Below are positions 3 through 23,295 of a DNA stretch of 26,575 nucleotides, one piece after another; within the stretch, counting starts at the first letter, position 1; each line of letters opens with the position of its first letter. This DNA comes from an uncultured Desulfobacteraceae bacterium (GTDB taxonomy: Bacteria > Desulfobacterota > DSM-4660 > Desulfatiglandales > Desulfatiglandaceae), in assembly GCA_964483185.1 (NCBI GenBank), contig CAZACO010000001.1, positions 1 to 26,575 on the forward strand, in the 5' to 3' direction. A model generated the notes under the pieces. It did not search any database and had not been told where the DNA came from. It was given only the letters and a program-made list of their open reading frames with translations. Both the position numbers and the translations under genes were made by a program.

Positions 3-95
3 AACGGGGTGAAAAACATGGTTTTGAAATTTGCTTACCGGATAAACAGACTGGACGCCATCATCTCGCGACAGCACGTGCCGGTAGCCTTTTAG
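3..95 (+). CDS. rnfG: Probable C-terminal end of Rnf complex subunit G (partial, 5' truncated by window)
   Basis: Frame 3 reads NGVKNMVLKFAYRINRLDAIISRQHVPVAF-stop (TAG 93-95). 'NGVK' resembles the end of the RnfG FMN-binding helix (…SSRAVxNGVK), and the position directly upstream of rnfE fits the rnfCDGEAB order. The sequence available is very short. Confidence 0.5.
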   Translation, partial: NGVKNMVLKFAYRINRLDAIISRQHVPVAF

Positions 96-146: not shown

Positions 147-773
147 TTGCCTGCTACCACAAAAACAAATTTCCAGTTGGTCTCCAATGGCATCCTGAAC
201 GAGAATCCGATCTTTCGTCTGGCCCTTTCCATGTGCCCGGCCGTGGGAATCAGCACGACGGTCATGAATGGACTCATGTTAGGGATTGCCGTCCTCTTCG
301 TACAGGTGTTTTCAAGTTGCACAATAGCGGCCATCAAGGACTATATTCACCCCAGGATCAGGATTCCCACCTATACCCTGACGATTGCCACATGGGTGAC
401 GGTGATTGATCTGGTCCTGGCAGCATACATGCCTGCGGCCTACAAGGAGATGGGAATTTTCGTTAAGCTGATCGTGGCCTTTGCCATTATAACTATGAGA
501 TTAGAGATTTTCGCATGCAAAAACACGGTGTCCGCCTCTTTCTGGGATGGCATCGGCATGGGTCTGGGGTTTATGTTCGGCATGATGGCGCTCGGTTTTG
601 TAAGAGAATTATTGGGAATGGGGACGATTTTAGGGCACGACGTTTTAGGATTCCGGCCGCTCCTTTTCTTTGTCCTCCCGGCAGCCGGATTCTTCTGCGT
701 AGGCATTATGATGGCGTTGTTCAACTATATGGAGATTCTTTATAACCGGAAGAAAAGGGCCGAAGAGATATGA
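147..773 (+). CDS. rnfE: Rnf electron transport complex subunit E (divergent RsxE/RnfE)
   Basis: TTG start after an AGGA RBS. ENPIFRLALSMCP, RIRIP, GIFVKLIV…R.E.FA.KN, DGIGMGLGF and VRELLG motifs match the RnfE/NqrD family. Hydrophobic multi-TM protein whose stop overlaps the rnfA start (ATGA). Confidence 0.93.
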   Translation: MPATTKTNFQLVSNGILNENPIFRLALSMCPAVGISTTVMNGLMLGIAVLFVQVFSSCTIAAIKDYIHPRIRIPTYTLTIATWVTVIDLVLAAYMPAAYKEMGIFVKLIVAFAIITMRLEIFACKNTVSASFWDGIGMGLGFMFGMMALGFVRELLGMGTILGHDVLGFRPLLFFVLPAAGFFCVGIMMALFNYMEILYNRKKRAEEI

Positions 774-1732
774 AATTTCCCGGGCGAAGATATCTATTCC
801 CAGGCATTTTGGTTATTATCGCGATCTTCTGTATCAGCGGGTGTAAATCCGAGCACCGTTTTGTAAAGAAAACGGCCTTTAAAGAGGCCAACCAGATCGT
901 CATCGAGTTTGCCGGGCCGGTTGACGAGACCTGGGCAAAGGATCCTTCCAATTATATTGCTTGCGAAAAGCCTGACCCGGATATCAGGCTGAAGATTCAA
1001 CAGGTAACCGTCAGCGCGGACAAAAAAAACGTCACGTTGACATTTGCAGATGACCTCAATAAAAACCAGCCGCATGGGGTGACGGTCAACAATATTTCTT
1101 CTGAAGGGAGAGCATTGGGCACAGCCATCCTCAATGTTAAGAAGGTCTACCTCGGATATCTTTTTTCAATTCTTATCGGCGCGATGATTATCAATAACTT
1201 CGTTTTTACCAAGTATTTAGGTCTGTGTGTGTTTTTCGGGACATCTCAGAAGAAGTCCACTGCGGTGGGCATGGGGATCACATTTACCATCGTCATCATT
1301 GTCAGTGCAATGATGTCTTGGTTCCTCTACCAGTTTGTGCTACAACCTTACCGGTTGGACTTTTTGCAGATCGTTGTCTTTATCGGATTGGTTTCTTTAT
1401 CGGTTCAGGCGGTTGATACCATCTTAAGGAAGGTCAACCCGCTTCTGTTCAAGGCATTCGGGGTTTACCTGGTACTGGTCATCGCAAATTGTATTATTAT
1501 TGCCGTTCCCCTGATCCTTGCGGACAATCAATATAATGCATTTGAGAGTCTTATGCTTGCCCTTGGGGCCGGGCTCGGATTTTTGATTGCCCTGTTCCTG
1601 ATGTCCTCTGTCCGTGAAAGGCTGGAATTGGCCAATGTTCCCCCTACATACCGGGGCCTCCCCATCGCTTTTGTCGTGGCTGGCCTGTTCGCGCTGGCCT
1701 TTTTGGGATTTTCGGGAATGTCTATCTTTTAG
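770..1732 (+). CDS. rnfA: Rnf subunit A with an extra ~125-aa N-terminal lipoprotein/Ig-like domain
   Basis: The C-terminal ~195 aa have the RnfA motifs NNFVFTKYLGLC, AVGMG, LQIVVFI, ANCII, GAGLGF and RERL…VP. The N-terminus has a basic n-region, a hydrophobic h-region and a lipobox ISG-C (Cys25), then a beta-rich soluble domain. Confidence 0.93.
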   Translation: MKFPGRRYLFPGILVIIAIFCISGCKSEHRFVKKTAFKEANQIVIEFAGPVDETWAKDPSNYIACEKPDPDIRLKIQQVTVSADKKNVTLTFADDLNKNQPHGVTVNNISSEGRALGTAILNVKKVYLGYLFSILIGAMIINNFVFTKYLGLCVFFGTSQKKSTAVGMGITFTIVIIVSAMMSWFLYQFVLQPYRLDFLQIVVFIGLVSLSVQAVDTILRKVNPLLFKAFGVYLVLVIANCIIIAVPLILADNQYNAFESLMLALGAGLGFLIALFLMSSVRERLELANVPPTYRGLPIAFVVAGLFALAFLGFSGMSIF

Positions 1733-1733
1733 A

Positions 1734-1925
1734 AGTGACTAAAATAAGGTAAAGTGCCTAAAATGCCTAAAGTTTGGAGTGCCTAAAATTGCAAATGCCT
1801 AAAATGAGCTGGGGTGACTAAAGTTTCGTTCGCTCAAAATCCCGGGGTTTAATAAAAGGCTGACGCCTGAATTCCTTTTTAAGTTTAGCTCACTTTAGAC
1901 ACTTTAGACACTTTAGCTCACTTAA
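1734..1925. repeat. Intergenic inverted array of ~9-11-nt units (consensus GTG[C/A/T]CTAAA[G/A]T on the left, reverse complement ACTTTAG[A/CT]CAC on the right)
   Basis: Left arm units: AGTGACTAAAAT (1734), AGTGCCTAAAATGCCTAAAGT (1753), AGTGCCTAAAAT (1778), AATGCCTAAAAT (1794), GTGACTAAAGT (1814). Right arm 1881-1925: AAGTTTAGCTCACTTTAGACACTTTAGACACTTTAGCTCACTTAA. Confidence 0.85.
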
Positions 1926-1938
1926 CCAAGGAGAATTG

Positions 1939-2805
1939 ATGGATCCAATATTGGTAAAACTGGCACTTGGCGGGTTAGCCGTATTGGGGTGCATTGGCCT
2001 GTTTTTTGGTATCGGTCTCGCCCTTGCCGCACACAAGTTTGCCGTGGAGGCCAATCCCAAGGTCGAGGAGGTATTGGAGGTTTTGGCAGGGGCCCAGTGA
2101 GGGGGATGCGGCTTCCCAGGGTGTGAAGCGTATGCCGAAGCGGTGGTGACTGCTCCCGATGTTCCCCCCAACCTCTGCTTCCCCGGCAAGGCGGAAGTAG
2201 CCAAAATGGTTGCAGAGATAACGGGCAAAAAAATGGCCGCTGTAGAAGATGTGGTAGCGACTGTCCGCTGTTCAAGAATCGAGGGAAAGGTCAAAAAGAA
2301 GCTGAACTATATCGGCTATGGGTCATGTACCGCTGCGACATTAGCCTTTGGGGGCCCATCTTCATGCCGGTACGCGTGCGTGGGCTTAGGTGAATGCGCT
2401 GAAGACTGCCCTTTTGACGCCATCGACATGGTGGACGGTTTTCCGGTTGTTGATTCAGCCCTCTGCGTTGGCTGCGGGACCTGTGTCCGCGTCTGCCCAA
2501 AGGGGATTATCGAATTGATCCCCTTGAAGGCCAGGGTCTGGGTCCCGTGCAGCACCAGAGATCCGGGCAAGGCCGTAAAACAGACCTGCGAGGTGGGTTG
2601 CATCTCGTGCAAAATGTGCGTCAAGACGTGCCCCGCAGAGGCAGTTACATTGGAGGACGGCATTGTCAGGATCGATCACCGGAAGTGTATGGAATTCGGT
2701 CCTGAGTGCGGTGAGATATGTATTGAGAAGTGCCCCAGGGGTATCTTCAGAAGCTATTCAGGGAGCCAAAAGTCAGTCCAACAGACAACCATGGCGGCGG
2801 CCTGA
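1939..2805 (+). CDS. rnfB: Rnf subunit B (polyferredoxin), probable selenoprotein (UGA = Sec54), 288 aa
   Basis: ATG 1939 follows AAGGAG. The frame reads MDPILVKLALGGLAVLGCIGLFFGIGLALAAHKFAVEANPKVEEVLEVLAGAQ-TGA(2098-2100)-GGCGFPGCEAYAEAV…PNLC and continues in frame into the 2143..2805 ORF with multiple CxxCxxCxxxCP motifs. The TGA sits at the first Cys of the RnfB 'N-C-G-x-C-G-x-x-G-C' motif. Confidence 0.9.
2101..2136 (+). promoter_or_regulatory. Candidate bacterial SECIS hairpin directly 3' of the in-frame UGA
   Basis: Folded by eye: AUGCG(2106-2110)/CGUAU(2129-2133), bulged G2111, CUUC(2112-2115)/GAAG(2125-2128), and a G-rich apical loop CCAGGGUGU starting about 15 nt after the UGA. Not computed. 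Confidence 0.6.
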
Positions 2806-2822: not shown

Positions 2823-3896
2823 ATGGAAAGAAATGGACGATTACATCATACATCGGGAATTATGAGTCGAAGGTCTTTTCTGAAGCTTTCGGGAATTCTC
2901 GGTATCGGTTTTGTCTCTGCTACAGTCATCCCCACCCGGGCGGAGGCCGTGAGGTTTAACAGCAGGCTCTACAAGATCTCCAAGACCCGGTTGGCCATGG
3001 GAACGTTTGTCTCCATGACACTCCTTCACGAATCGAAGGACCAGGCCCAAGAGGCGATGGGAGAGGCCTTTCTTGAAATCGACCGGCTGGCGCGGACCAT
3101 CAGCCGTTTTGATGAGACAACGGCCGTTGCGCAGCTCAACCGGGAGGGGTATCTGAAAGATATTCCCCCTGAGGTGGGAGAGGTGGTTGCCAGGTCGTTA
3201 GCGTACTACCGAATCAGCAACGGGGCCTTTGATATATCTGTCAAACCGGTCGTCGACCTGTTCAAAGAAAAGTTTTCCAAGGGTAAAAAAATGCCGCCCA
3301 CTGAAGCAGAGCTGAGGGAGGCGCTCAGGCTGGTCAATGCGTCCGATATCGAATTTGGGAGACGCGACGTCCGTTTCAAGCGTCCGGGTATGGGGATTAC
3401 ATTAGATGGCATTGCAAAGGGATATATTGTGGACAGGGCCTCCGGGGTCCTTGCCGGGCACCGGATAACGAATCACCTGATCAATGCCGGTGGTGACATC
3501 CGTACAATGGGCCACCGCCTTGACAAGAAGCCATGGACCATTGCGGTTCAGGATCCTCAGAAAGAGAAACATTATCCCGGCATTATTCATCTGACGGACG
3601 GGGCGGTTGCCACGTCAGGTAACTATGAGATCTATTTTGACCGGGAAAAGATGTTTCATCATATCGTGAACCCCCATACCGGGTTATCTCCCGAAGAGAG
3701 CACGAGCGTGTCGGTCTTGGCAGACACGGCCATGGAGGCAGATGCCCTCTCTACGAGTGTATTTGTCATGGCGCCCGAGCACGGCACACGCTTTATTAAC
3801 TCGCTTCCCAGATGTGAATCTCTCGTGGTAGCTAAGGGGAACATAAAGATCGAATCGGAGGGATGGAAAAGCGCGGCGATTTCAGGAATGAGTTGA
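2823..3896 (+). CDS. apbE: FAD:protein FMN transferase (ApbE) with a twin-arginine signal peptide
   Basis: ATG 2823 follows a GGAGG RBS, so the ORF-track start at 2730 is too far upstream. Motifs: MGT, LDGIAKGYIVD, NAGGDI, ATSGNYE, HIVNPHTG, ADALST. N-terminus SRRSFLK + hydrophobic stretch + AEA. Adjacent to rnf, whose RnfD/RnfG need covalent FMN. Confidence 0.93.
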   Translation: MERNGRLHHTSGIMSRRSFLKLSGILGIGFVSATVIPTRAEAVRFNSRLYKISKTRLAMGTFVSMTLLHESKDQAQEAMGEAFLEIDRLARTISRFDETTAVAQLNREGYLKDIPPEVGEVVARSLAYYRISNGAFDISVKPVVDLFKEKFSKGKKMPPTEAELREALRLVNASDIEFGRRDVRFKRPGMGITLDGIAKGYIVDRASGVLAGHRITNHLINAGGDIRTMGHRLDKKPWTIAVQDPQKEKHYPGIIHLTDGAVATSGNYEIYFDREKMFHHIVNPHTGLSPEESTSVSVLADTAMEADALSTSVFVMAPEHGTRFINSLPRCESLVVAKGNIKIESEGWKSAAISGMS

Positions 3897-11701: not shown

Positions 11702-12361
11702 ATGGCAGAAACTGCGATTAACACCTATAAAACGAAGACCGAACTGGTCTACGATTACCTCCGAACGAATATTTTGCAGAAACATTTTAAACCCGGGGAT
11801 AAGATCATCATCCGCGAAATTTCCAAAATGTTAAACCTCAGCGATATCCCGGTGAGGGAGGCCATCAAGAAACTGGAGACCCAGGGGTTGCTTCATGTGG
11901 TTCCCCACACCGGAGCGCGGGTGGCCGAAATCGACCGAAAGGAGATGGAGGAGATTTATATCATTCGCAGCACCCTCGAGGCCCTAGCCACGCAATTAGC
12001 CTGCCCCTATATAAAGTCGGAAGACTTCCAGAGGCTGGAGAAAATATTGGGAAAGTACGAGGATACGTTTCGCGCTGGGAAATATGAGGCTCTAAGTGAA
12101 TTGAATAAAGAATTTCATCTGGAAATCTACAGATGTTCCCCCTACAAGAGCCTCTTCAAAATGATTGTGGAAATATGGGAGCGGTCAAAGATGATCCGCC
12201 ATGCCTTTTCTCTGCCCAGTTCTTTGCGGGAGCAGTCGATGAAAGAACATCGATTGATATTGCAATTGTTGCGAAAGGGGAACGGCGAAGAGGCGGCCGA
12301 ACTCGTGCGGAAGCAGAAAATTGCCTCGTGGAAGGTAATTTCAACGCTCATGGAAGAATGA
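11702..12361 (+). CDS. GntR family transcriptional regulator (wHTH + FCD domain)
   Basis: VYDYLRTNIL…KPGDKI…SDIPVREAIKKLETQGLL…PHTGARV (GntR HTH); FCD-type C-terminus (LNKEFH…EH..I). Confidence 0.95.
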   Translation: MAETAINTYKTKTELVYDYLRTNILQKHFKPGDKIIIREISKMLNLSDIPVREAIKKLETQGLLHVVPHTGARVAEIDRKEMEEIYIIRSTLEALATQLACPYIKSEDFQRLEKILGKYEDTFRAGKYEALSELNKEFHLEIYRCSPYKSLFKMIVEIWERSKMIRHAFSLPSSLREQSMKEHRLILQLLRKGNGEEAAELVRKQKIASWKVISTLMEE

Positions 12362-12486
12362 GGTTCTTTTAAACGGCATACCCGATACGATGGTTTTTCA
12401 ATTTGGTGTGATCAAGGAAGAGGCCCAGAAAAGATTGAGAAAACCATGAATGTCAGTTGCCGAAAATACAAAACAGGAGGTGCATT

Positions 12487-13473
12487 ATGGCAAAGGGAAG
12501 AAATTGGTCAAAAAGTAAATCTTGTTTCGTTTTAGTGGCATTGCTCATGGTACTATTTTACGCCTTTCCAGGGTTCGGAGAGGAATACCCATCCCAGACC
12601 ATCAAAATCATCGTGCCATATCCCCCAGGAGGAGTTACGGATTTAATCAGCCGATCCATGGCAGATACGATGGCCAAAGTGCTGGGGCAGCCGGTAATCA
12701 TCGAGAATAAGCCGGGTGGAGGAACGACTGTGGCTTATTCCCTTGTGGCCAACTCCAAGCCCGATGGGTATACAATCGGACATCTTGCCGTGGGGACTTT
12801 GGTTGGTAATTTTTTGGCTTATGACGTTGCTTACAACCCACTGAAGAGCTTTGACTACATTGGAGAAGTTGGGATCTATGCACAATCCATCATTGTTAAA
12901 TCAGATGCCCCCTGGAAGACGTGGGATGAATTTGTTGACTACTCCAAGAAACATCCCCAGAAGATCCGTATGGGCCTTACTAACCAGGTAAGCACCAATG
13001 CCATCCCTACCAAATGGATTAATCATCGATTGGGAAATCCATGGAAAGAAGTGGCCTTTCGTGGTGACACTCCATGTATTACCGCTCTATTAGGCGGGCA
13101 TATCGATGCTTTTGCGGGGGGAGGCGCCCATAACATATTGGTGAACGACGGCCGAGCAAGAATGCTTCTGGCTTTGACGAACAATCCGATCCCTGGTCAT
13201 CCAAATGTTCCGACCTTCAAGCAGGTATACGGCAAACCCGTAGGCAACTTTGCGGGTTACATGGCTCCGGCGGGACTACCTGCCGACGTCCTCAAAAAAC
13301 TGGAAAAGGCAACGAATGAAGCGACCAAGGCTCCGGAATTCCTCAAAGTGATGGAGAAGATGTCCATGACCCCGCTGTGGCGGAACGGTGAGGAACTGAC
13401 CGAGGAGGTGAAAACCCTGCTCTCAACTCTTGAAACATTTTATAAAGATTTAGGTAAACTGAAAAAGAAGTAA
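12487..13473 (+). CDS. tctC: Tripartite tricarboxylate transporter substrate-binding protein (TctC/Bug family)
   Basis: ATG 12487 follows AGGAGG. Signal peptide, then YPSQTIKIIVPYPPGGVTD, GQPVIIENKPGGG, KPDGYT, ALLGGHID, PNVPTF, APAGLP. Confidence 0.93.
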   Translation: MAKGRNWSKSKSCFVLVALLMVLFYAFPGFGEEYPSQTIKIIVPYPPGGVTDLISRSMADTMAKVLGQPVIIENKPGGGTTVAYSLVANSKPDGYTIGHLAVGTLVGNFLAYDVAYNPLKSFDYIGEVGIYAQSIIVKSDAPWKTWDEFVDYSKKHPQKIRMGLTNQVSTNAIPTKWINHRLGNPWKEVAFRGDTPCITALLGGHIDAFAGGGAHNILVNDGRARMLLALTNNPIPGHPNVPTFKQVYGKPVGNFAGYMAPAGLPADVLKKLEKATNEATKAPEFLKVMEKMSMTPLWRNGEELTEEVKTLLSTLETFYKDLGKLKKK

Positions 13474-13551
13474 AATTTTTGGACCTGTGTGATCAGTTTA
13501 TCGCAGCCTGGAAACAACCGGATTTGAGCGCATGAGTCGTCCGGTCACACA

Positions 13552-13609
13552 CGTGAAAAGTGAAGAATGAAACGTGAAATCTCCTTTACTCATGGAGTTT
13601 CACGTTTCA
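13552..13609. repeat. Intergenic hairpin built from 7-nt units
   Basis: CGTGAAA-AGTGAAG-AATGAAA-CGTGAAA (13552-13579). TGAAACGTGAAA(T)CTCC pairs with GGAGTTTCACGTTTCA (13594-13609) around a 9-nt loop. Confidence 0.8.
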
Positions 13610-13742
13610 GAACCCAGAAGTTCAGCACACGAGGAGGATTTGTTTGGTGCATTGTCGATATCTCAGGTCTAACCGTACAGGTCCAGATTTCTGGTTCATC
13701 CAAACGAATCTTTGACCTCTCCATAGAGAAGAGGAGGGCTAG

Positions 13743-14624
13743 GTGTCCAGGAAATTACCCAGGTTTGAATATTTCCGGCCAGAGAGTTTCCAAGAGGCGA
13801 TGGAAATTTTGAAGAAGCACGAGCACAAGATCCGCCCCCTGGCTGGCGGGACGGATCTGTTCATTGCGATGAAAGAAAAGGGGGCCGCATGGGAAAACGT
13901 TTTGGATTTGAAGGGCATCCCTGACTACGATTACATTCGAGAAGTGGACGGCGGGATCGAGATCGGGGCCCTGGCCACGATCCGTTCCGTGGAAACTTCC
14001 CCCTTGATTAAAGAGAAGATTCCTCTTCTGGCCTCTGCTGCGGGAACGATTGGATCCATCCAAATTCGAAACAGGGCCACCATAGGAGGGAATCTATGCA
14101 ATGCGGCTCCCTCAGCAGATACGGCCCCAGCCCTCCTTTGCCTGAGAGCCGAAGTGGAAATCATCGAGGAAGCGGGAGTAAGAAGGATTCCCCTTGACGA
14201 ATTTTTTGTGGGTCCGGGCAAAACACTACTCCGGGAGACTGCCCTTCTGAAGAAGATTTTTGTTCCCTTTCAACCTTTGAATAGTGCCGGCATTTATTTC
14301 AAAGAAAGTCCGCGCCGGGCCATGGATTTGGCTGTGGCCGGGGTGTCCTGCCTCATGACGTTCGATTCGGCCAAAAAGAAATGCCTTGATTGCCGAATCG
14401 CTTTGGGGGCTGTGGCCCCAACCCCCATGCGGGCGAAGAATGCTGAAAAACTTATGATGAACCAACAGATAACAGAAAAGGAAATCGCCGCAGCAGGAGA
14501 AACGGCCAGTGGAGAATGCAGTCCCATCAGCGATGTAAGGGGGTCTGCACAGTTCCGTCGAGAAATGGTGAGAGTATTTGTTGAAAAAGGTTTGCGTGAG
14601 TTATGGAGTGAGGTAAGGTCTTAA
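13743..14624 (+). CDS. Xanthine dehydrogenase family FAD-binding (medium) subunit, CoxM/CutM-like
   Basis: FEYFRP, LAGGTDL, IRNRATIGGNLCNAAPSAD, FFVGPGKT, ALGAVAPTP, PISDVRGSA. No 4Fe-4S insertion. GTG start after GAGGAGG. Confidence 0.94.
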   Translation: MSRKLPRFEYFRPESFQEAMEILKKHEHKIRPLAGGTDLFIAMKEKGAAWENVLDLKGIPDYDYIREVDGGIEIGALATIRSVETSPLIKEKIPLLASAAGTIGSIQIRNRATIGGNLCNAAPSADTAPALLCLRAEVEIIEEAGVRRIPLDEFFVGPGKTLLRETALLKKIFVPFQPLNSAGIYFKESPRRAMDLAVAGVSCLMTFDSAKKKCLDCRIALGAVAPTPMRAKNAEKLMMNQQITEKEIAAAGETASGECSPISDVRGSAQFRREMVRVFVEKGLRELWSEVRS

Positions 14625-14648
14625 CCTTGTTCTCCGAGGTATGGAAGC

Positions 14649-15200
14649 ATGAAACATTCTATTAAAATGGTTGTGAATGGGGAAGATTATGAGCTTGTGG
14701 TAAACCCAAATGAACTGCTCATTGATGTCCTGAGGGATCGATTGGATTTGACGGGGACGAAGGAGGGGTGCGGAACAGGGGATTGCGGGGCCTGCACGGT
14801 CCTGGTGGACGGCAAAGCCATCAATTCCTGCCTGACCTTGGCGATCGAGATGAACGACAAGGAGATCTTCACCATAGAAGGGATGGCCCCTGGGGGAAAA
14901 CTGAATCCGATCCAAGAGGCTTTTATCGATGAAGGAGCCGTCCAGTGCGGGTTCTGCACCCCCGGAATGATCCTATCTGCTAAGGCCCTGCTACAGGAAA
15001 AGCGCCTTCCCTCAGAAGACGAGATCAAGAGGGGAATCGCGGGCAATCTCTGCCGATGTACCGGCTATAAGAAAATCATTCAGGCCATTCAAACGGCAAG
15101 CCTGCGTTTGGGAAAAGAGAGCAATGCAACTGCTGGGCAATCCCGGGAAGCATGCCTTCGATCTGCGCCCCAGCAAGGGACCTGCCTTAGTTCGGAGTAA
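14649..15200 (+). CDS. Xanthine dehydrogenase family 2x[2Fe-2S] (small) subunit, CoxS-like
   Basis: GTKEGCGTGDCGACTV…NSCL, QCGFCTPG, GNLCRCTGY. Confidence 0.95.
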   Translation: MKHSIKMVVNGEDYELVVNPNELLIDVLRDRLDLTGTKEGCGTGDCGACTVLVDGKAINSCLTLAIEMNDKEIFTIEGMAPGGKLNPIQEAFIDEGAVQCGFCTPGMILSAKALLQEKRLPSEDEIKRGIAGNLCRCTGYKKIIQAIQTASLRLGKESNATAGQSREACLRSAPQQGTCLSSE

Positions 15201-15205
15201 TTCCA

Positions 15206-17482
15206 ATGAATAATTTTCAATTTATAGGGAAAAGGATACCCGTCATTGATGCCAAGGAGAAGGTAACTGGCGAGGCCAAGTATACAGCCGATCTGAAATT
15301 TCCCCATATGCTTTACGGTAAAATTCTACGGAGCCCCCACCCCCACGCAAGAGTCCTGAATATCGATATCAGCCGCGCACAAAAGATCCCCGGAGTCAAA
15401 GCCATCGTGACCGGAGAACAGATCCCTAAGAAAAAAATAGGCGCCTTTATCGAAGATCAATATATCCTGGCCGTGGATAAAGTACGTTATATCGGAGAAG
15501 AAATCGCGGCGGTAGCGGCCATCGATGAAGAGACAGCAGAGGAAGCCTGTAATCTGATCGAAGTAGACTACGAGGTTCTCCCGGCAGTTTTTGATGTGGA
15601 AAAGGCCATCTTGCCGGATGCTCCGCGGATCCACGAGGAAGCCGTGAACAACATTGCCATGCGGCTAGATATCAATCGGGGAGATGTCAAGACAGGGTTT
15701 GAAGAATCTGATTATATCTTTGAGGAACGCTTTAGCACACCAAGTGTACATCAGGGTTATATGGAGCCCATGGCTGCGATTGCTTCGTTTGATATCCATG
15801 GCAGAATGACCCTGTGGGCTCCGGTTCAACATATCTACTTGGCCCGGGCTCATTTAGCCAAGGCCTTGAGTATGCCGGTGAGCGCCATCCGCGTCATCCA
15901 ACCTAAAGTGGGCGGCGGATTCGGTGGTAAAACTGCTGATCAGATGAGCATCCCGATTTGTTGTGTGCTGGCCAAAGCGACCCAAAAACCTGTGAAGCTT
16001 GTCTTGACCCGAAAGGAGGAGTTTATTTCAGGCAGGCCACGAGTGGCAACCGTTATTTATTTAAAGATGGGTGTAAAAAGCGACGGGACCTTCATGGCCA
16101 AGGAAGCCAGAATTTTTTCGGACAATGGAGCTTATTCAGGGAAAAGTCCCTCCATTATGACGACCACTGCAATCCGCGCTGATGCCCTTTATCAATACAA
16201 GAATGTCAAAGCCGAAGCCAACTTGGTCTATACAAACAAAGTGCCCACAGGAGGCTATCGCGGATTTGGGAATCCCCAGATGGCCTTTGCGGTTGAAAGT
16301 CTTATTGACACCATTGCCCACCAGCTTGAATTGGACCCACTCGAGATTCGTCTGAAGAATGCTGTCGAACCGGGTATGACAACAGTCCACGGATGGAAGA
16401 TCAAGAGCTGCGGCTATCGGGAGTGTATTACAAAAGCGGCGGCCGCCGCAGAATGGAACAGGTATAAAAAAGGGAAGCGTACTGCCAAGATCGGCGTAGG
16501 GATCGCCGGGGCTGCGGATGTAAGCGGGAATAAGCACTTCGGCTATGATGGTTCGAACATTCTCCTAAAAATAACCGAAGATGGAAAAGCCAGGATCATC
16601 TCTGGCGAAGGAGATATCGGCCAGGGTGGAACAACCATATTGACACAGATTGTCGCTGAGGAATTGGGGATTCCTTTGGAAGAGATAGAGGTCTCGGTGG
16701 CCGATACAGATTCAACCCTCTTTTGCTTGGGTGCCTTTGCAAGCCGTTTAACTACGCTGGCTGGCAATGCGGTAAAATTAGCAGCGGCGGATGCTAAAAG
16801 ACAGCTTTTTGATATCGCTGCAAAGGTTCTGGAAGCGAATCAGGAGGATTTATTGTGTAAAAATGGAAAAGTATTTGTGCAGGGGTCTTTAGAAAAAAAG
16901 TTGACGATAGCCGAAGTCATGCAGGCAGGACTTCTGAAATTGGGGAAATTCGGCAATATCAATATCCTGGGCCGAGGTTCTTTTGACCCGGATTCTGAAG
17001 TATGGGACCCTAAGAGCAAATATGGAAATATCGCCAGCACCTATCAATTTGCGGCCCATGTCGCGGTGGTGAAAGTATGCGAGGAAACTGGCCACATACA
17101 GATATTGGATTATGCGGCTGCGCACGATGTTGGCCGGGCCATTAACATGCTGACTTTGGAAGGTCAAATTGAAGGAGGGGTTACCCAGGGAATCGGATAT
17201 GCCCTATGGGAAAATTATTTGTTTAAAGACGGCAAGCTTCTCAATCCTAATTTTACTGACTTCAAAATCCCTCTGGCCCCGGATTTACCACCCATCAAAA
17301 ACATCATTGTCGAACCTGGGGATCCTGTAGGCCCATTTGGGGCGAAAGGCGTGGGTCAGACCCCCTTGGTTCCTGCGGCACCGGCAATTGCCAACGCTAT
17401 CTTTGATGCGGTGGGGGTAAGGATTACCGATTTACCCATCACTTCCGGTAAAATCCTGCAGGCCTTACGGGAAAGAAAATGA
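15206..17482 (+). CDS. Xanthine dehydrogenase family molybdopterin-binding (large) subunit 1
   Basis: KVTGEAKYTAD, LRSPHPHA, HQGYMEP, VGGGFGGK, GYRGFGNPQ, DIGQG, GAFASR, EGQIEGGVTQGIG, GPFGAKGVGQ. Confidence 0.95.
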   Translation: MNNFQFIGKRIPVIDAKEKVTGEAKYTADLKFPHMLYGKILRSPHPHARVLNIDISRAQKIPGVKAIVTGEQIPKKKIGAFIEDQYILAVDKVRYIGEEIAAVAAIDEETAEEACNLIEVDYEVLPAVFDVEKAILPDAPRIHEEAVNNIAMRLDINRGDVKTGFEESDYIFEERFSTPSVHQGYMEPMAAIASFDIHGRMTLWAPVQHIYLARAHLAKALSMPVSAIRVIQPKVGGGFGGKTADQMSIPICCVLAKATQKPVKLVLTRKEEFISGRPRVATVIYLKMGVKSDGTFMAKEARIFSDNGAYSGKSPSIMTTTAIRADALYQYKNVKAEANLVYTNKVPTGGYRGFGNPQMAFAVESLIDTIAHQLELDPLEIRLKNAVEPGMTTVHGWKIKSCGYRECITKAAAAAEWNRYKKGKRTAKIGVGIAGAADVSGNKHFGYDGSNILLKITEDGKARIISGEGDIGQGGTTILTQIVAEELGIPLEEIEVSVADTDSTLFCLGAFASRLTTLAGNAVKLAAADAKRQLFDIAAKVLEANQEDLLCKNGKVFVQGSLEKKLTIAEVMQAGLLKLGKFGNINILGRGSFDPDSEVWDPKSKYGNIASTYQFAAHVAVVKVCEETGHIQILDYAAAHDVGRAINMLTLEGQIEGGVTQGIGYALWENYLFKDGKLLNPNFTDFKIPLAPDLPPIKNIIVEPGDPVGPFGAKGVGQTPLVPAAPAIANAIFDAVGVRITDLPITSGKILQALRERK

Positions 17483-17545
17483 AAAACTAGGATTGGCGTT
17501 CTCCGGTTGCCCGAAAGGGTCAGACAATCTGCTGAGAGATGAGAT

Positions 17546-18001
17546 ATGAAGGAATATGACCTTTACGGTGGTCTGTTCTGGCTGCTCATGGCCATTTTTG
17601 TGAGCGTCATGGGGGTGAAGTTTGGCCTGGGGACCCTCGGATATCCCGGCCCCGGATTTTTCCCCTTTCTGGTGGGTCTAATATTGTTCTGCTTCTCTTT
17701 CGGCATCATCATTATTGCCTTTAAAGAAAAAGCCAAAGGGCCAGGGTTTACGGAATGGCCGTTTTTCGGAAAAAAGGTCTTTGCTACCCTGGCCATTCTA
17801 TTCGCCTACTCTTTTTCCCTTGAATATCTCGGATTCATTATTGGTTCATCTCTCTTAATGTTTTATCTCTTCAAGGTACCCGGGGCCCAAAAGTGGTGGC
17901 TTTCCGCGACCGCCACAGTGGTTACAATTGCCCTGGCGTACTATTTTTTCGTAGTCCTGCTGAAGGCGCAGTTACCGAAAGGGCTCTTGGATATGGGTTA
18001 G
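17546..18001 (+). CDS. tctB: Tripartite tricarboxylate transporter small membrane subunit TctB
   Basis: Four TM helices, GPGFFP motif, LEYLGF, C-terminal L..QLPKG; directly upstream of tctA. Confidence 0.88.
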   Translation: MKEYDLYGGLFWLLMAIFVSVMGVKFGLGTLGYPGPGFFPFLVGLILFCFSFGIIIIAFKEKAKGPGFTEWPFFGKKVFATLAILFAYSFSLEYLGFIIGSSLLMFYLFKVPGAQKWWLSATATVVTIALAYYFFVVLLKAQLPKGLLDMG

Positions 18002-18116
18002 GCGCCGATATAGAGGTGGTCCAATCCCGGATGGCTCATCACTATAGAACCTTGAGAAAATGAAAACCGGTAACTGCCTGAAGTTGCTTGGCATTTACTT
18101 CTTTAGGGATATTAGA

Positions 18117-19655
18117 TTGGATACTTACAGCAGCATCGTTTTAGGATTAGAAATCGGGCTGTTGCCGATGAATTTACTCTTTTGTTTTATAGGGGTACTG
18201 ACTGGAACTCTAGTGGGAGTGCTTCCGGGGGTCGGACCGGTGGCGGCGATGGCCCTGCTTTTGCCCGCTACGTTCCACATAGCCCCGGCGGCTGCTATCA
18301 TCATGCTGGCCGGAATCTATTACGGGTCGATGTACGGCGGATCAACCACCTCCATCTTGGTCAATATCCCCGGGGAAGCAGGTTCCGTGATTACCTGCCT
18401 GGATGGATATCAGATGGCCCGCAAGGGGAGAGCGGGCCCCGCCTTAGGCATATCCGCCTTTGGTTCTTTCATCGCCGGAACGTTCGGGGTGTTGATCCTG
18501 ATGCTAATCGCCAATCCGATGGCGGAATTTGTATTGAAATTCGGCCCTCCTGAATATTCTGCCGTCATGGTCCTTGGCTTGAGCTTATTGATTTATCTTG
18601 CTCAGGGATCCAGAATTAAGGCGCTGGTGATGGCCTGTTTTGGTTTGATTCTCAGCTTTATCGGCATTGACGTTTTGACCGGGCAGCATCGGTTGAATTT
18701 CGGATCGATGAACTTCGCGGAAGGCGTCGGGTTGGTCCCCGTGATTATGGGAGTCTTCGGCATCTCCGAAGTATTGATCAACATGGAACAGATGACGAAG
18801 CAGGAGATCTATGAGACGAAAATCCGCGGGCTTTTCCCATCATTGAACGACTGGGCGAGGTCGAAATGGCCGATCATTCGTGGTTCGGTCCTGGGTTTCA
18901 TTCTGGGGGTTCTCCCCGGAGGCGGGCCAACCCTGGCGGCCTTTGCGAGTTACGCCCTGGAAAAAAAGATATCCAAGCACCCGGAAACATTTGGAACCGG
19001 TGCCATTGAGGGAGTCGCAGGACCCGAGTCTGCCAACAATTCCGCCACGTCAGGAGGTTTTATTCCCTTGTTTCTCATCGGGATTCCCACCAATGGGATT
19101 CTGGCAATGCTTTTCAGCGCCCTTCTGATTCACGGCCTTCAGCCTGGACCGTTATTGCTGCAGCAGAACCCCGAGGTCTTTTGGGGAGTAGTGATGAGCA
19201 TGTATATCGGGAACGTGATGCTTCTCGTATTAAACCTGCCTTTGATCGGAGTCTGGATAAAAATATTGAAGATACCCTATCCGATTCTATTTCCCCTGAT
19301 CATATTCTTTTGCTTAATCGGCTCCTACAGCATTAACAACAACGCATTGGACGTAATCGTCATGTTGATTTTTGGCTTGATCGGTTATGTCATGAGAAAG
19401 TTCGGTTACGAGGGTGCCCCGCTGATTCTGGCCCTTATTCTGGGTCCGATGCTGGAGCGGTCCTTCATTCAATCCCTGAACATGTCTGGGGGGACCTATC
19501 AGATATTCTTCGGGAGCGTCATTTCCGCCGTAACGATGATCATTGCATTGGGCGTGATCTTTTCCTCGTTAATCCCGCTTTTACGAAAGAGAAGTCCAGT
19601 AACCGAGAGTTTTTCGAAGAAATGCTCAGAGGACCGTGTTACTGTTGAGGACTAG
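18117..19655 (+). CDS. tctA: Tripartite tricarboxylate transporter large membrane subunit TctA
   Basis: GTLVGVLPGVG, YYGSMYGGS, NIPGE, DGYQMARKG, GPESANN, GIPT, GLQPGP. The likely start is TTG 18117 (MDTYSS…); the ORF track uses 18060. Confidence 0.95.
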   Translation: MDTYSSIVLGLEIGLLPMNLLFCFIGVLTGTLVGVLPGVGPVAAMALLLPATFHIAPAAAIIMLAGIYYGSMYGGSTTSILVNIPGEAGSVITCLDGYQMARKGRAGPALGISAFGSFIAGTFGVLILMLIANPMAEFVLKFGPPEYSAVMVLGLSLLIYLAQGSRIKALVMACFGLILSFIGIDVLTGQHRLNFGSMNFAEGVGLVPVIMGVFGISEVLINMEQMTKQEIYETKIRGLFPSLNDWARSKWPIIRGSVLGFILGVLPGGGPTLAAFASYALEKKISKHPETFGTGAIEGVAGPESANNSATSGGFIPLFLIGIPTNGILAMLFSALLIHGLQPGPLLLQQNPEVFWGVVMSMYIGNVMLLVLNLPLIGVWIKILKIPYPILFPLIIFFCLIGSYSINNNALDVIVMLIFGLIGYVMRKFGYEGAPLILALILGPMLERSFIQSLNMSGGTYQIFFGSVISAVTMIIALGVIFSSLIPLLRKRSPVTESFSKKCSEDRVTVED

Positions 19656-19666
19656 CTTAGGAGAGG

Positions 19667-20461
19667 ATGAACTCTATGATAATCTTGCGATACCAGTGGA
19701 AGGGGATGATCAGGTGGGGCATTCTGGAAGGGGAAGAGAAGATCTTCGCGTTGGAAGGAGATCTTTACGGCGATTTTGGAAAAGGCAAAGAAGTCTGCCG
19801 TTTGGCTGATGTCAAGCTCCTCGCCCCTGCAGAACCGACCATCATGGTAGCCTGCGGCATGAACTATCGGGCACGGTTCCTAGAAGGCGGGTTGAAGGAG
19901 GAGCCGCAGGAGCCAATCCTTTTCTTTAAGCCTGCAACAGCGGTGATCGGTTCTTTTGAAGACGTGGTTTTTCCGGCGATTGCGCGAGAAATGCGCTATG
20001 AGGGTGAGCTATGCGTGGTCATGAAGAGGCATGCCAGAAATGTATCGGAGAAAGATGCAATGCGTTATGTATTAGGATACACCTGCGGGAATGAGTTGGG
20101 GGCAATGGATCTAATGAAGAAGGACCGTTGGATGACAAGGGCCAAAGGCTTCGACACCTCCGGCCCCCTGGGTCCTTTTCTTGTCACGGATCTCAATCCT
20201 CATGGCCTGTCGATCAAGAGCCGGCTCAATGGCCAAACCAGACAAGACAGCCATACGAGCCTCATGATTTTTCGGGTGGAAAAGCTGATCAGTTATATTT
20301 CGGAGTTTATGACCCTTCGCCCCGGAGACGTCATCTGGACAGGTACCCCTGCTGGGAACAGCAATGTGAAGGTGGGGGATCTCATGGAAGTCGAGATCGA
20401 AGGAATCGGAATCCTTAGCAACAGGGTTGTTGCGTCGAGTAATTCTGGAAAAAGAGCGTGA
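19667..20461 (+). CDS. Fumarylacetoacetate hydrolase (FAH) family protein
   Basis: EPILFFKP, YEGEL, GYTCGNE, RAKGFDTSGPLGP, TLRPGDVIWTGTP, GDLMEVEIEGIGILSN. Confidence 0.92.
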   Translation: MNSMIILRYQWKGMIRWGILEGEEKIFALEGDLYGDFGKGKEVCRLADVKLLAPAEPTIMVACGMNYRARFLEGGLKEEPQEPILFFKPATAVIGSFEDVVFPAIAREMRYEGELCVVMKRHARNVSEKDAMRYVLGYTCGNELGAMDLMKKDRWMTRAKGFDTSGPLGPFLVTDLNPHGLSIKSRLNGQTRQDSHTSLMIFRVEKLISYISEFMTLRPGDVIWTGTPAGNSNVKVGDLMEVEIEGIGILSNRVVASSNSGKRA

Positions 20462-20520
20462 GGAAGAAAACTTGGTGATAAAAGGAAATGCAGTGCACAA
20501 GAAATACAAGGAGTATTTAC

Positions 20521-21309
20521 ATGGAGCAAATTACGGGAAATGTATTCTATGAGAATAGATTTCGGGGATGCAATCTTGGCCTTGTGGTCACCGATGATGG
20601 TGTTGTCCTGATCGATACCCCTGTGGATTTTGAAGTTGCCCAAGGGTGGATGGGGGAGATTGCCAAACGAGGGGAAGTTCGCTGTATCATCAATACGGAA
20701 CATCACATGGACCACTGGTTGTGCAACGGGCTCTTTGCGGGGGACATCATCGCCCATGAAGCAACCCGGGAGACCATGCTGACCATGGATCTCGATTTCA
20801 TCGCCAAGCGAACACAGATCCTCTATCTTGAGCCCCACCAAATCCCGGAGGGGTATCAACTGAAGTATCCAAACATGACCTACCACGGGAGGATGACACT
20901 CTATTTTGGGAAACACACCTTTCATCTCATTCATACTCCTGGCCACACTCCCGGAGTCACGGCCGTTTATATTCCTGAAGAGAGGGTAGTCTTCACGGGT
21001 GATAACGTCGTCGGCGGGACCCGTACAGCCTACCACGATGCCCTGCCCGAAAAATGGATCGAGTCCCTCAAGCGGCTGCAAGACCTGGATATCCAAACAG
21101 TGCTTCCCGGCCATGGAAAGGTGTGCGATAAAGCATATTTGAAGCAGCAGGCGGAGATCGTACACGGATGGTGGCAAGGAACACAAAAAGCCAAGACCGA
21201 AGGCATCCCTTTTGACGATGAGGCGAAACGCAAAATCGATCCCTTTTTCGATTTTCGAGACACCGGGATCAGACCTACGGTGACTTTGACCGCCACATCG
21301 GCCCGATAA
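20521..21309 (+). CDS. Metallo-beta-lactamase-fold hydrolase (cyclase-like group)
   Basis: ATG 20521 follows AAGGAG. NLGLV…GVVLIDTP, INTEHHMDH, HTPGHT, FTGDN, PGHG. Confidence 0.9.
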   Translation: MEQITGNVFYENRFRGCNLGLVVTDDGVVLIDTPVDFEVAQGWMGEIAKRGEVRCIINTEHHMDHWLCNGLFAGDIIAHEATRETMLTMDLDFIAKRTQILYLEPHQIPEGYQLKYPNMTYHGRMTLYFGKHTFHLIHTPGHTPGVTAVYIPEERVVFTGDNVVGGTRTAYHDALPEKWIESLKRLQDLDIQTVLPGHGKVCDKAYLKQQAEIVHGWWQGTQKAKTEGIPFDDEAKRKIDPFFDFRDTGIRPTVTLTATSAR

Positions 21310-21353
21310 GGTCAGCCAATGATCATCAACCAGGCAAAGGAGGAGAATTGGAG

Positions 21354-22583
21354 ATGTCACAAGGTAAAGATGAAAGCCCATGGGTAGCGCCGGGGAAGTG
21401 GTCTGTCAGTCCCTACTGCTACGAGCCTGAGGTAAGAACTGATTGGCGGCTGCCCAAGGAGATTGCTATTCATGATGTTACTCTCAGAGATGGGGAGCAG
21501 ACGCCGGGGGTTGTCTTCCGAAAGGATGAAAAATTGAAAATAGCTCATGCCCTGGAGGATGCCGGCGTGCAGCGCATCGAGGGAGGCATGATTTCCACCT
21601 CCGAGGAAGATTTCGATGCAATCCGGGCCATGGTACGGGAAATCAAAAGATCCGAGGTGGCCTGCTTCTGCAGGGCACGACGCGACGACCTAGAACGGTC
21701 TCTCAAGGCCGGGGTACACCGGGTCATCATGGAGATAACCGCCCAGGATCCGATCATTAGAAAGATTTGGGGGAGCCGGGGGAAGGCGGTAGAAGAGATC
21801 ATCAAATTGGCTCAATTTGCTAAGACCAACGGTCTCAAGGTTACTTTCTTCCTCATGGAAAGCAGCCGAAGCCCACTGGATCTCCTGCGGGATTTCATTG
21901 TCCCGGTTGTTCGGGAGGGGAAGGTAGACCATGTCACGATCGTGGATACACGCGGATCAGCTTTCCCCCCCGCTTTCGCCTGGATAGTCTCCCAGGTCAA
22001 GCAATGGGTGCAGATTCCGGTTGAGGTCCATTGCCATAACAACTGGGGGCTGGCTACGGCTGCGACTCTGGCTGGAATCACGGCCGGGGCCGAGGTGGTT
22101 CACACCTGCATTAACGGGATGGGTGGCAACGCATCGCTGGATGAAATCGTTATGGGCGCCGAAGCTCTCTTGGGGGTGAAGACCGGCGTGAAGACGGAAA
22201 TGTTCCAGGAGATGTCCGCGAGGGTCAGAGAGATGTCCGGGGCCGACTGGTACAAGCCTTTTGTTGGGTCCCTGACTTCCCAGGTAGAGGTGGGCATCGC
22301 CACCCGGCAGATGTGGGATCGACGCAATGAAAAGGGGTATGGGCGGGCAGAACCGCTCAATTATGAGGTTGTTGGGGGGAAGGCGGTCGAGTTGGCGCTA
22401 GGGAAAAAGAGTGGAAGGTATTCGATGATGCTGAAGGCATGGGAGCACGGCCTGCCTCAACCTTCTGAAGAGCAGGCAACCGAAATGGTGAGTAGGGTGA
22501 AAAAGATTTCGGAAGCCGAAAAACGTCTGGTCACGGACGAGGAATTCAAGAAGATATACACCCAGGTCTGCGATGCTGGATAG
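21354..22583 (+). CDS. DRE-TIM metallolyase (HMGL-like; homocitrate/isopropylmalate synthase-like catalytic domain, no regulatory domain)
   Basis: IHDVTLRDGEQTPG, EVHCHNNWGLA.A..LAG..AGA, GMGGNA, LGKKSG. The start is ATG 21354, or TTG 21348. Confidence 0.88.
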   Translation: MSQGKDESPWVAPGKWSVSPYCYEPEVRTDWRLPKEIAIHDVTLRDGEQTPGVVFRKDEKLKIAHALEDAGVQRIEGGMISTSEEDFDAIRAMVREIKRSEVACFCRARRDDLERSLKAGVHRVIMEITAQDPIIRKIWGSRGKAVEEIIKLAQFAKTNGLKVTFFLMESSRSPLDLLRDFIVPVVREGKVDHVTIVDTRGSAFPPAFAWIVSQVKQWVQIPVEVHCHNNWGLATAATLAGITAGAEVVHTCINGMGGNASLDEIVMGAEALLGVKTGVKTEMFQEMSARVREMSGADWYKPFVGSLTSQVEVGIATRQMWDRRNEKGYGRAEPLNYEVVGGKAVELALGKKSGRYSMMLKAWEHGLPQPSEEQATEMVSRVKKISEAEKRLVTDEEFKKIYTQVCDAG

Positions 22584-22713
22584 GTTCTTTTCGTGGCTTA
22601 TTGGGCATTCCCCTTTTTAGAAAATCTTCTCCAGCAGCGTATTAAGGGCTTCCCCTTGCCTGAAGGGAATTTGCCCCAGGGCGAGGACTTTTAAGAGAGG
22701 GAGGGACGAATCC

Positions 22714-23295
22714 ATGGCGCCTGTGAGGAAATCCGAGGAGAGGAAAAAGTTGCGGAATCATTCCGTGGCCGAGAAGAAAGATAATCTGCCCAGGTTGGTT
22801 CGGCGCCTTTCAGTAAACGTGAACGGAAAGCAGGTTGAACTGGATGTCGATTCCCGCATGACCCTGGCTGAGTTCTTGCGCGAAAAGCTGGGTTTGACCG
22901 GCACGAAAGTGGGCTGCAACCGTGCCGAGTGCGGGAGCTGCACGGTCCTGCTTGACGGGAATCCCGTATATTCCTGCACTACATTGGCCGTGGAAGCGGC
23001 TGGCAGGAAAGTTGTGACCATTGAAGGGTTGGCAGTCAATGGTCAACTCCATCCGATTCAAGAAGCCTTCATTGAGCTGGACGCTCTCCAGTGCGGATTC
23101 TGCACACCCGGGATGATTCTGTCCCTTAAAGCCTTTCTGGAAAACAAGTTCCGGCCTACAGACGAAGAGATTAGAATTGCTATCGACGGAAACCTTTGTC
23201 GCTGCGGCTGCTATCCCAATATCATCCATGCAGCCAAAACCGCAGCCGAAAAAATGACACCTATCCGGGGTGGGGGAGAGGGAAAGGATGGATAG
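22714..23295 (+). CDS. Xanthine dehydrogenase family 2x[2Fe-2S] subunit (PaoA/YagT-like)
   Basis: GTKVGCNRAECGSCTV…YSCT, QCGFCTPG, GNLCRCGCYPNI. Charged N-terminal extension without a hydrophobic signal. Confidence 0.94.
   Translation: MAPVRKSEERKKLRNHSVAEKKDNLPRLVRRLSVNVNGKQVELDVDSRMTLAEFLREKLGLTGTKVGCNRAECGSCTVLLDGNPVYSCTTLAVEAAGRKVVTIEGLAVNGQLHPIQEAFIELDALQCGFCTPGMILSLKAFLENKFRPTDEEIRIAIDGNLCRCGCYPNIIHAAKTAAEKMTPIRGGGEGKDG

Follow-up and report, generated by a model that had tools for sequence, protein, structure and literature searches.

An RnfA subunit with a predicted periplasmic Ig-like domain at its N-terminus in Desulfobacterota

Why should an rnfA locus encode a protein of 320 residues, when the family model for RnfA has 190 positions? 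The question is raised by an open reading frame (ORF) at 770..1732 (+ strand) of a 26,575-nucleotide stretch of DNA from an uncultured Desulfobacteraceae bacterium (contig CAZACO010000001.1, assembly GCA_964483185.1), the whole of which we call the window. A first-pass annotation, made from the sequence alone, had proposed that about 125 additional in-frame residues precede the RnfA core. We found the ORF to be uninterrupted over its 320 codons and to comprise three parts, a lipoprotein-type signal, an all-beta domain and a complete RnfA core. On balance we take its product to be the RnfA subunit of ferredoxin:NAD+ oxidoreductase (Rnf) with an added N-terminal periplasmic module that would have a structural or contact role. 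Of the anatomy itself, an exported Ig-like domain joined to a complete RnfA core, we are considerably more confident. The parts, with the evidence for them, are as follows.

770..1732, + strand: whole rnfA fusion ORF, 320 amino acids (aa) plus stop; same architecture in 79 genomes and 120 listed protein clusters
770..841, + strand: predicted signal peptide, residues 1–24 (n-region with K2, R6 and R7; h-region; lipobox I22-S23-G24)
842..844, + strand: Cys25 codon (tgt), predicted lipidated N-terminus of the mature protein (sequence, alignment)
845..1144, + strand: predicted periplasmic Ig-like (Big_5-type) beta-sandwich, residues 26–125 (AlphaFold2 (AF2), Foldseek, profile search, ratio of nonsynonymous to synonymous substitution rates (dN/dS))
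1154..1729, + strand: RnfA core with six predicted transmembrane (TM) helices, residues 129–320, including C153 and C241 (alignment to solved RnfA chains)

The RnfA core and the conservation of its extension

Family matches defined the extent of the core. Pfam Rnf-Nqr (PF02508) matched residues 132–317 of the ORF (E = 7.5e-46; 156.8 bits against a cutoff of 23.8), and TIGR01943 (rnfA) matched residues 131–317, equivalent to positions 3–189 of the model. Because of the extents of these two matches, we place about 128 residues in frame ahead of a complete RnfA core. The core scored 191.8 bits against TIGR01943, below the curated cutoff of 229.3 despite full-length coverage, and RnfA models outscored the RnfE and NqrD models by far. 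Residues 129–320 aligned end to end with the solved chains 9eri_A (Acetobacterium woodii), 7zc6_A (Clostridium tetanomorphum) and 8ahx_A (Azotobacter vinelandii); across the solved RnfA/NqrE chains, including 7xk3_E, alignments covered residues of about 130–317 with E values of 1e-57 to 1e-41.

In order to follow the extension across genomes, one genome per species was scanned. The domain was encoded by at least 96 genomes, the best 80 of which were examined, and 79 sequences were aligned in full. Two cysteines of the core, C153 (within GLCVFFG) and C241 (within ANCII), are invariant in these 79 aligned sequences; by homology, they would be the ligands of the intramembrane [2Fe-2S] cluster that RnfA shares with RnfE, as set out in a 2025 review of RNF and NQR (PMC12174285). 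Lysines and arginines in the core number 2, 3 and 3 in loops 1–2, 3–4 and 5–6, and 1, 0 and 0 in the remaining loops and the tail. Because these counts follow the positive-inside pattern, the N-terminus is expected to lie outside, and the core is predicted to have six TM helices with both termini outside. According to the same review, the topologies of RnfA and RnfE are mutually inverted (Saaf et al. 1999, cited in PMC12174285). Both the loop counts and this inversion agree with the first-pass proposal that a periplasmic fusion to the N-terminus of RnfA is topologically compatible.

The extension is not peculiar to this window. All of the best 80 loci of the 96 encode the domain and the RnfA core in one ORF, as does one further metagenomic contig, and the complete fused ORFs among them are 312–332 aa long. 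Their carriers belong to the Desulfobacterales, Desulfatiglandales, Desulfomonilaceae and Syntrophaceae (all Desulfobacterota) and include a cultured organism with a complete genome, Desulfonema magnum 4be13 (locus L066). Conservation across the clade, for which the first-pass annotation had suggested a survey, was thus evident in all 79 aligned species genomes. A search with the full-length protein returned 2,932 relatives; the best 120 of these are nearly all 316–323 aa, with a few shortened to about 300 aa, and carry no label beyond “RnfA,” “NADH-quinone reductase” or “Rnf-Nqr domain containing protein.” With the extension alone as query, five metagenomic proteins were returned that are 54–86% identical to it, three of which run on into Rnf-Nqr. 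Among the matches to a profile of the domain we saw no stand-alone form; the short matches were fused RnfA proteins truncated by the end of a contig and reaching the sequence of the first TM helix (TM1).

Selection on the extension is measurable. The Ig-like domain has a dN/dS of 0.08–0.13 against most of the nearest relatives and 0.29 against L002, compared with 0.01–0.03 for the core and 0.2–0.7 for the signal peptide, a range expected of signal peptides. The junction residue K125 is invariant in the 79 aligned sequences. The Ig-like domain is therefore under purifying selection, at a dN/dS of about 0.1, and the conservation of the extension is far beyond chance.

These data also bear on whether the extension might be an artefact, that is, an untranslated upstream ORF, an assembly chimera or a missed stop codon. 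We found nothing in favour of this explanation. The frame contains no stop codon, and the window sequence has no ATG, GTG or TTG between residues 120 and 138; the first such codon is M139, which lies within TM1, and therefore an internal start cannot yield a canonical RnfA. The ATG of rnfA at 770 overlaps the stop codon of rnfE (ATGA, 770–773), which couples the start of rnfA to rnfE. The same architecture recurs in independent assemblies, complete genomes among them. The conserved architecture, the dN/dS of the domain and the invariant K125 together rule out each of these three kinds of artefact, to which we attach next to no probability. Of the outcomes that the first-pass annotation had named as damaging, an internal start, an unconserved extension and a missed stop or chimera at about 1140 were each looked for, and none was found.

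The export signal and the Ig-like domain

The ORF begins with MKFPGRRYLFPGILVIIAIFCISG, which is followed immediately by Cys25 (codon 842–844). As the first-pass annotation had noted, this N-terminus has the layout of a lipoprotein signal: MKFPGRR, a hydrophobic stretch and I-S-G-C. The G/A/S-Cys junction is kept in nearly all relatives of the Desulfobacterales type. The hydrophobic 19-mer of the signal peaks at 2.04, and the core lipobox pattern [LVI][ASTVI][GAS]C is satisfied by I22-S23-G24-C25 following K2, R6, R7 and the hydrophobic core. In close relatives both G24 and C25 are invariant. A stricter lipobox pattern, of the PROSITE PS51257 style, was passed by 72 of the 79 relatives, although in distant subclades a few of the matches depend upon a cysteine within the h-region and are likely to be false.

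The lipobox-bearing, Sec-type signal peptide would carry the N-terminus of the protein across the inner membrane, and signal peptidase II would then cut before Cys25, which would be lipidated, as far as the sequence allows us to predict. Canonical RnfA has hardly any tail at its N-terminus, which lies outside, so a folded domain added there would be expected to need a cleavable export signal of its own.

The lipid anchor appears to be less widespread than the domain. In loci L001–L071, except L069, a cysteine aligns with the beginning of the domain; it is absent in L072–L080 (Desulfomonile-like; Desulfomonilaceae and Syntrophaceae) and in the metagenomic proteins P0028, P0031, P0032, P0033, P0037 and P0042. 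In the corresponding position, the distant subclades without the cysteine have AxA-like sites for signal peptidase I. The type of signal thus appears to have switched within the fused-RnfA family while the fusion persisted. Because the subclades without the cysteine have AxA-type signals, we infer that export of the domain is the conserved property and that the lipid anchor belongs to a single lineage.

An AF2 model of the domain is all-beta, with seven to eight strands over residues of about 32–123. The first-pass annotation had likened the extension to bacterial Ig-like domains of the Big_5/SbsA type, and structure and profile searches both led to that group. Using Foldseek against the PDB, the top matches were the Ig-like domains of S-layer proteins, SbsC (2ra1/4uic), Sap (8rw9/6qx4) and SbsB (4aq1), with E values of 1e-7 to 1e-5 over 90–98 aligned columns, followed by CopC at an E value of about 1e-4. 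A sequence profile of the whole family matched Sap weakly (E = 0.0026). A profile of the domain found giant multi-repeat proteins with E values of 1e-34 to 1e-44, and Pfam scans of two of these, P0010 and P0011, identified both as Big_5 repeat proteins (1e-29 to 1e-44); hhalign gave a 92% probability for the domain against one repeat of P0011.

The conserved residues of the domain tell a similar story. A generic Big_5 repeat also has most of the residues that are invariant in the 79 sequences (F47, P50, V51, D52, A56, E66, D69, P70 and I72). The motif in common is F-x-x-P-V-D ... N-Y ... E-x-x-D-P-x-I, and comparison with the Big_5 repeat leaves few family-specific residues. The 79-sequence alignment has no CxxCH, no conserved pair of cysteines and no family-specific cluster of metal ligands in the domain, and Cys65 of the window is not conserved. 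The domain, as judged from profiles and the model, is a plain, divergent Big_5-type Ig-like module.

The fold match to CopC prompted us to consider a special metal or cofactor site. We rejected this candidate: the conserved residues are mostly generic Big_5 residues, distant subclades lack H29, and acylation is predicted at the mature N-terminus.

RnfG and the proposed role at the periplasmic face

RnfG is enlarged in this clade. It is about 304 aa long (2037–2951 in locus L001; 6365–7270 in locus L078), compared with 187–190 positions in the family models and 189–207 aa in solved chains. In these two loci about 70 of the extra residues precede the flavin mononucleotide (FMN)-binding domain and about 28–35 lie within it, for a protein about 110 residues longer overall, and the RnfG of the clade scores below the TIGR01947 cutoff. 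In structural work on Rnf, the principal contact of the RnfG FMN domain lies within the RnfA/E periplasmic cavity, and this domain has to move (PMC11889175; PMC12174285); it travels between RnfA/E and RnfD, and in one model Na+ leaves via RnfA/E (PMC11889175; PMC9588780; PMC12174285).

Cys25 is separated from the first strand of the domain by about 6 residues, and the last strand from TM1 by about 4 (K124–Y127). The lipid at Cys25 would tether one end of the Ig-like domain and TM1 the other. Because it would be held at these two points by linkers of such length, its predicted position is close to the outer leaflet, beside RnfA/E. We tentatively propose that the Ig-like domain has a structural or protein-contact role at the interface of RnfA/E with RnfG on the periplasmic side, where it may brace the mobile FMN domain of RnfG or guide it, or else shield the interface. 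Among the functions we considered, a structural or contact role seems the likeliest because no cofactor motif is present in the domain, whose invariant residues are for the most part generic to Big_5; a redox role is unlikely.

Several observations weigh against this account. The window sequence fails the strict PS51257-style lipobox pattern, solely at position −4, which is occupied by Cys21. Confidence in the AF2 model is moderate, the predicted local distance difference test (pLDDT) score of the domain being 70–86 with a shallow alignment and 65–79 with an alignment of 122 sequences; the TM part was modelled poorly (predicted template-modelling score (pTM) 0.35), as was the orientation of the domain relative to the core. 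The 122-sequence alignment gave no improvement, either in the domain or in its arrangement with the core. Pfam Big_5 (PF13205) scored 18.1 bits on the domain of the window, below its gathering threshold of 23.6, and matched 20 of the 79 relatives at E values up to 0.1, the best being 3.7e-4 and none of them significant; because Big_5 stays below threshold in the window and its relatives alike, the domain goes unannotated. Finally, the mirror-tree partial correlation between the Ig-like domain and the RnfG extension was 0.43, compared with a barely lower 0.37 for the control, ApbE, against the same extension. With RnfD, the corresponding values were 0.39 for the Ig-like domain and 0.42 for ApbE.

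The failure of the strict pattern would also fit a different arrangement, in which the hydrophobic segment remains uncleaved and serves as a signal anchor, a seventh TM helix, with the Ig-like domain forming a periplasmic loop before TM1. Topology is equally consistent with such an arrangement, and the distant subclades that lack the aligned cysteine would fit it too. However, in about 70 species a [GAS]-Cys junction is kept at one aligned position even though the signal evolves fast (dN/dS 0.2–0.7), and the subclades without the cysteine show their AxA-like signal peptidase I sites at precisely that place. Because of this conserved junction and these replacement sites, we favour cleavage of the signal and consider an uncleaved anchor unlikely. 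As to function, the first-pass annotation had put forward docking of a cytochrome, a hydrogenase or ApbE, or else stabilisation of the complex, as candidate roles. The domain could instead be where a cytochrome c, a hydrogenase, a formate dehydrogenase or another redox partner docks in the periplasm, which would tie Rnf to periplasmic electron carriers. Its predicted place on the periplasmic face beside the flavin-carrying RnfG (PMC11889175) would suit docking, Ig-like domains commonly bind proteins, and a cytochrome gene is present in the rnf clusters of other Desulfobacterales and of Desulfovibrio (PMC5109826; PMC4841214). In the fused-RnfA clade, by contrast, there is no cytochrome or hydrogenase gene among the recurrent neighbours annotated across about 80 loci; these neighbours are rnfCDGEAB, then apbE in nearly all loci, with ribF ahead of rnfC in about 22. 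The lack of CxxCH or any other cofactor motif, the unconserved Cys65 and the scarcity of family-specific residues likewise speak against docking of a redox partner, which we regard as rather improbable.

The constancy of apbE raises another possibility, that the domain serves biogenesis, either by bringing a soluble, Tat-exported ApbE to RnfG and RnfD or by aiding assembly of the periplasmic flavin sites. In nearly all loci reaching far enough, apbE lies directly after rnfB, and ApbE here seems to have no membrane anchor of its own, because its signal is of the twin-arginine translocation (Tat) type (SRRSFLK) and has no lipobox cysteine. But apbE is also found in rnf operons with canonical RnfA, for example as rnfF in Desulfovibrio (PMC4841214), and is thus linked to rnf with or without the fusion; the mirror-tree partial correlation between the Ig-like domain and ApbE was low, at 0.18. 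We give a role in biogenesis only a small chance. It is similarly doubtful that the Ig-like domain and the enlarged RnfG form a periplasmic platform coupling Rnf to cytochrome c, hydrogenase, formate dehydrogenase or the outer-membrane/peptidoglycan layer; if they did, Rnf would exchange electrons or signals with the periplasm, beyond looping electrons back to NAD+. Of these functions, we continue to prefer a structural or contact module at the RnfA/E–RnfG interface.

Operon context and comparison with known systems

In the window the fused gene stands in the order rnfG (tail), rnfE, rnfA, rnfB and apbE. The neighbouring features are these.

3..95, + strand: 3' end of rnfG (last 30 codons plus stop); the frame-3 translation, NGVKNMVLKFAYRINRLDAIISRQHVPVAF*, matches the C-terminus of the 304-aa RnfG of L001
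147..773, + strand: rnfE, 208 aa, TTG start as listed; Pfam Rnf-Nqr E = 2.2e-51, NF009070 RsxE 212 bits against a cutoff of 184
1733..1935, no strand: rnfA-rnfB spacer with GTGCCTAAA(A/G)T and inverted CACTTTAGA repeats (sequence)
1936..2805, + strand: rnfB, with an in-frame TGA at 2098–2100 (probable selenocysteine); translation LAGAQ*GGCGFPGC
2823..3896, + strand: apbE, flavin transferase with a Tat-type signal; Pfam ApbE E = 6.8e-76, weak TAT_signal match

The order rnfD-rnfG-rnfE-rnfA(fused)-rnfB is present in every related locus that reaches far enough, and apbE follows in nearly all. Using tblastn, we found an rnfC match upstream, without an in-frame TGA, in every locus reaching far enough except L064 and L066; in L016 the match contains one frameshift. 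The domains of rnfC are the usual ones (RnfC_N, Complex1_51K and Fer4). In L066 (Desulfonema magnum) a methyltransferase gene, a DUF1638 gene and a flavin oxidoreductase gene lie upstream of rnfD, with no adjoining rnfC, and L064 likewise has no adjoining rnfC.

The single in-frame TGA of rnfB falls on an Fe-S ligand position, the first cysteine of the N-terminal CxxCxxxxC motif, in the flexible [4Fe-4S] ferredoxin domain of RnfB, a motif described previously (PMC9588780). At the same codon, 56 related loci have TGA and 16 have TGC or TGT. Because TGA and cysteine codons share this one position, we read the TGA as one half of a selenocysteine/cysteine pair, and RnfB is probably a selenoprotein in most of the fused-RnfA clade. 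The cysteine form of the RnfB orthologue passes NF005503 RnfB and is of the small, A. woodii-like type. A search for a selenocysteine insertion sequence (SECIS) at the TGA gave a predicted hairpin no better than that of shuffled sequence, and Rfam returned nothing. In the literature we found no paper on a selenocysteine-containing RnfB.

In the spacer between rnfA and rnfB (1733–1935), forward copies of GTGCCTAAA(A/G)T, numbering about six, stand opposite three reverse-complement copies in tandem (CACTTTAGA). The inverted arms are 32 nucleotides long and 81% complementary, and the repeats might form a structure in the mRNA or an array to which a protein binds. The start of apbE is uncertain, since the listed ORF begins at a GTG at 2730 and overlaps rnfB; an ATG at 2823 or 2862 is likelier. 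With the signal it carries, ApbE here is probably a soluble periplasmic flavin transferase and not a lipoprotein; the ApbE of Salmonella is a lipoprotein (Beck & Downs 1999, cited in PMC4841214).

The rest of the window is ordinary chromosome, with dnaB, rpsF-rpsR-rplI, a GDP-mannose dehydratase gene and an M48 peptidase gene. From 11702 to 25624, genes for a GntR/FCD regulator, TctC, TctB and TctA are interleaved with two gene sets for molybdoenzymes of the xanthine-dehydrogenase family, which include a FAD-binding subunit, a 2Fe-2S subunit and two molybdenum cofactor (MoCo) subunits (758 and 784 aa). This region is probably a catabolic cluster for aromatic or heterocyclic acids, unrelated to the RnfA fusion.

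Fused RnfA sequences are already in databases, but we found no published description of their architecture. A literature search for RnfA together with fusion, lipoprotein, Ig-like domain, signal peptide or Desulfonema returned nothing relevant. The available text of the 2025 review contains neither “fusion” nor “additional domain” and describes no extended RnfA (PMC12174285). The gap is also one of annotation: the domain slips under Pfam and NCBIfam thresholds, and the proteins go under the name of ordinary RnfA or “NADH-quinone reductase.”

Among anaerobes Rnf is central to energy conversion, and a recent review calls its RnfA/E heart exceptionally well conserved. A clade of environmentally abundant sulfate reducers and syntrophs appears to place a folded domain at the periplasmic end of TM1 of RnfA. 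That face is where RnfG docks and, in one current model, where Na+ is released. Taken together, the fused RnfA, the longer RnfG and an RnfB that in most loci is a probable selenoprotein would define a distinct, unstudied subtype of Rnf. Such a subtype may bear on how the movement of RnfG is controlled, and Desulfonema magnum is a cultured carrier.

Compared with canonical RnfA and NqrE, the fused protein has the same core, the same two cysteines in half-helices that bind [2Fe-2S] and the same rnfCDGEAB context. The solved RnfA chains are 190–191 aa long and NqrE (7xk3_E, Vibrio cholerae) is 198 aa, with no soluble domain; in fused RnfA a predicted signal peptide and then a domain of about 100 residues, predicted to be periplasmic, precede the core. 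The modelled beta-sandwich fold matches that of Big_5 and S-layer proteins. In those proteins, however, the domains form tandem arrays at the cell surface or in the S-layer, whereas in RnfA a single copy is joined to a polytopic respiratory subunit.

In principle the nearest analogy is subunit II of the haem-copper oxidases (E. coli CyoA), which has a lipoprotein signal, a lipidated N-terminal cysteine, TM helices and a periplasmic beta-sandwich. The CyoA family is unrelated to RnfA, and its periplasmic domain comes after the TM helices, whereas that of RnfA comes before them.

Among Rnf complexes themselves, the closest comparison is with Rnf2 of the Desulfobacula toluolica Tol2 type (PMC5109826). 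Both are lineage-specific elaborations of Rnf in sulfate reducers of the same order. In the Tol2 type it is the cytoplasmic subunits that are altered, RnfB being about 700 aa long and RnfC truncated, and a cytochrome gene is present (PMC5109826). The fused-RnfA complex, in contrast, has a small RnfB (NF005503) and an RnfC with the usual domains, and its change would lie on the periplasmic side, in RnfA and RnfG.

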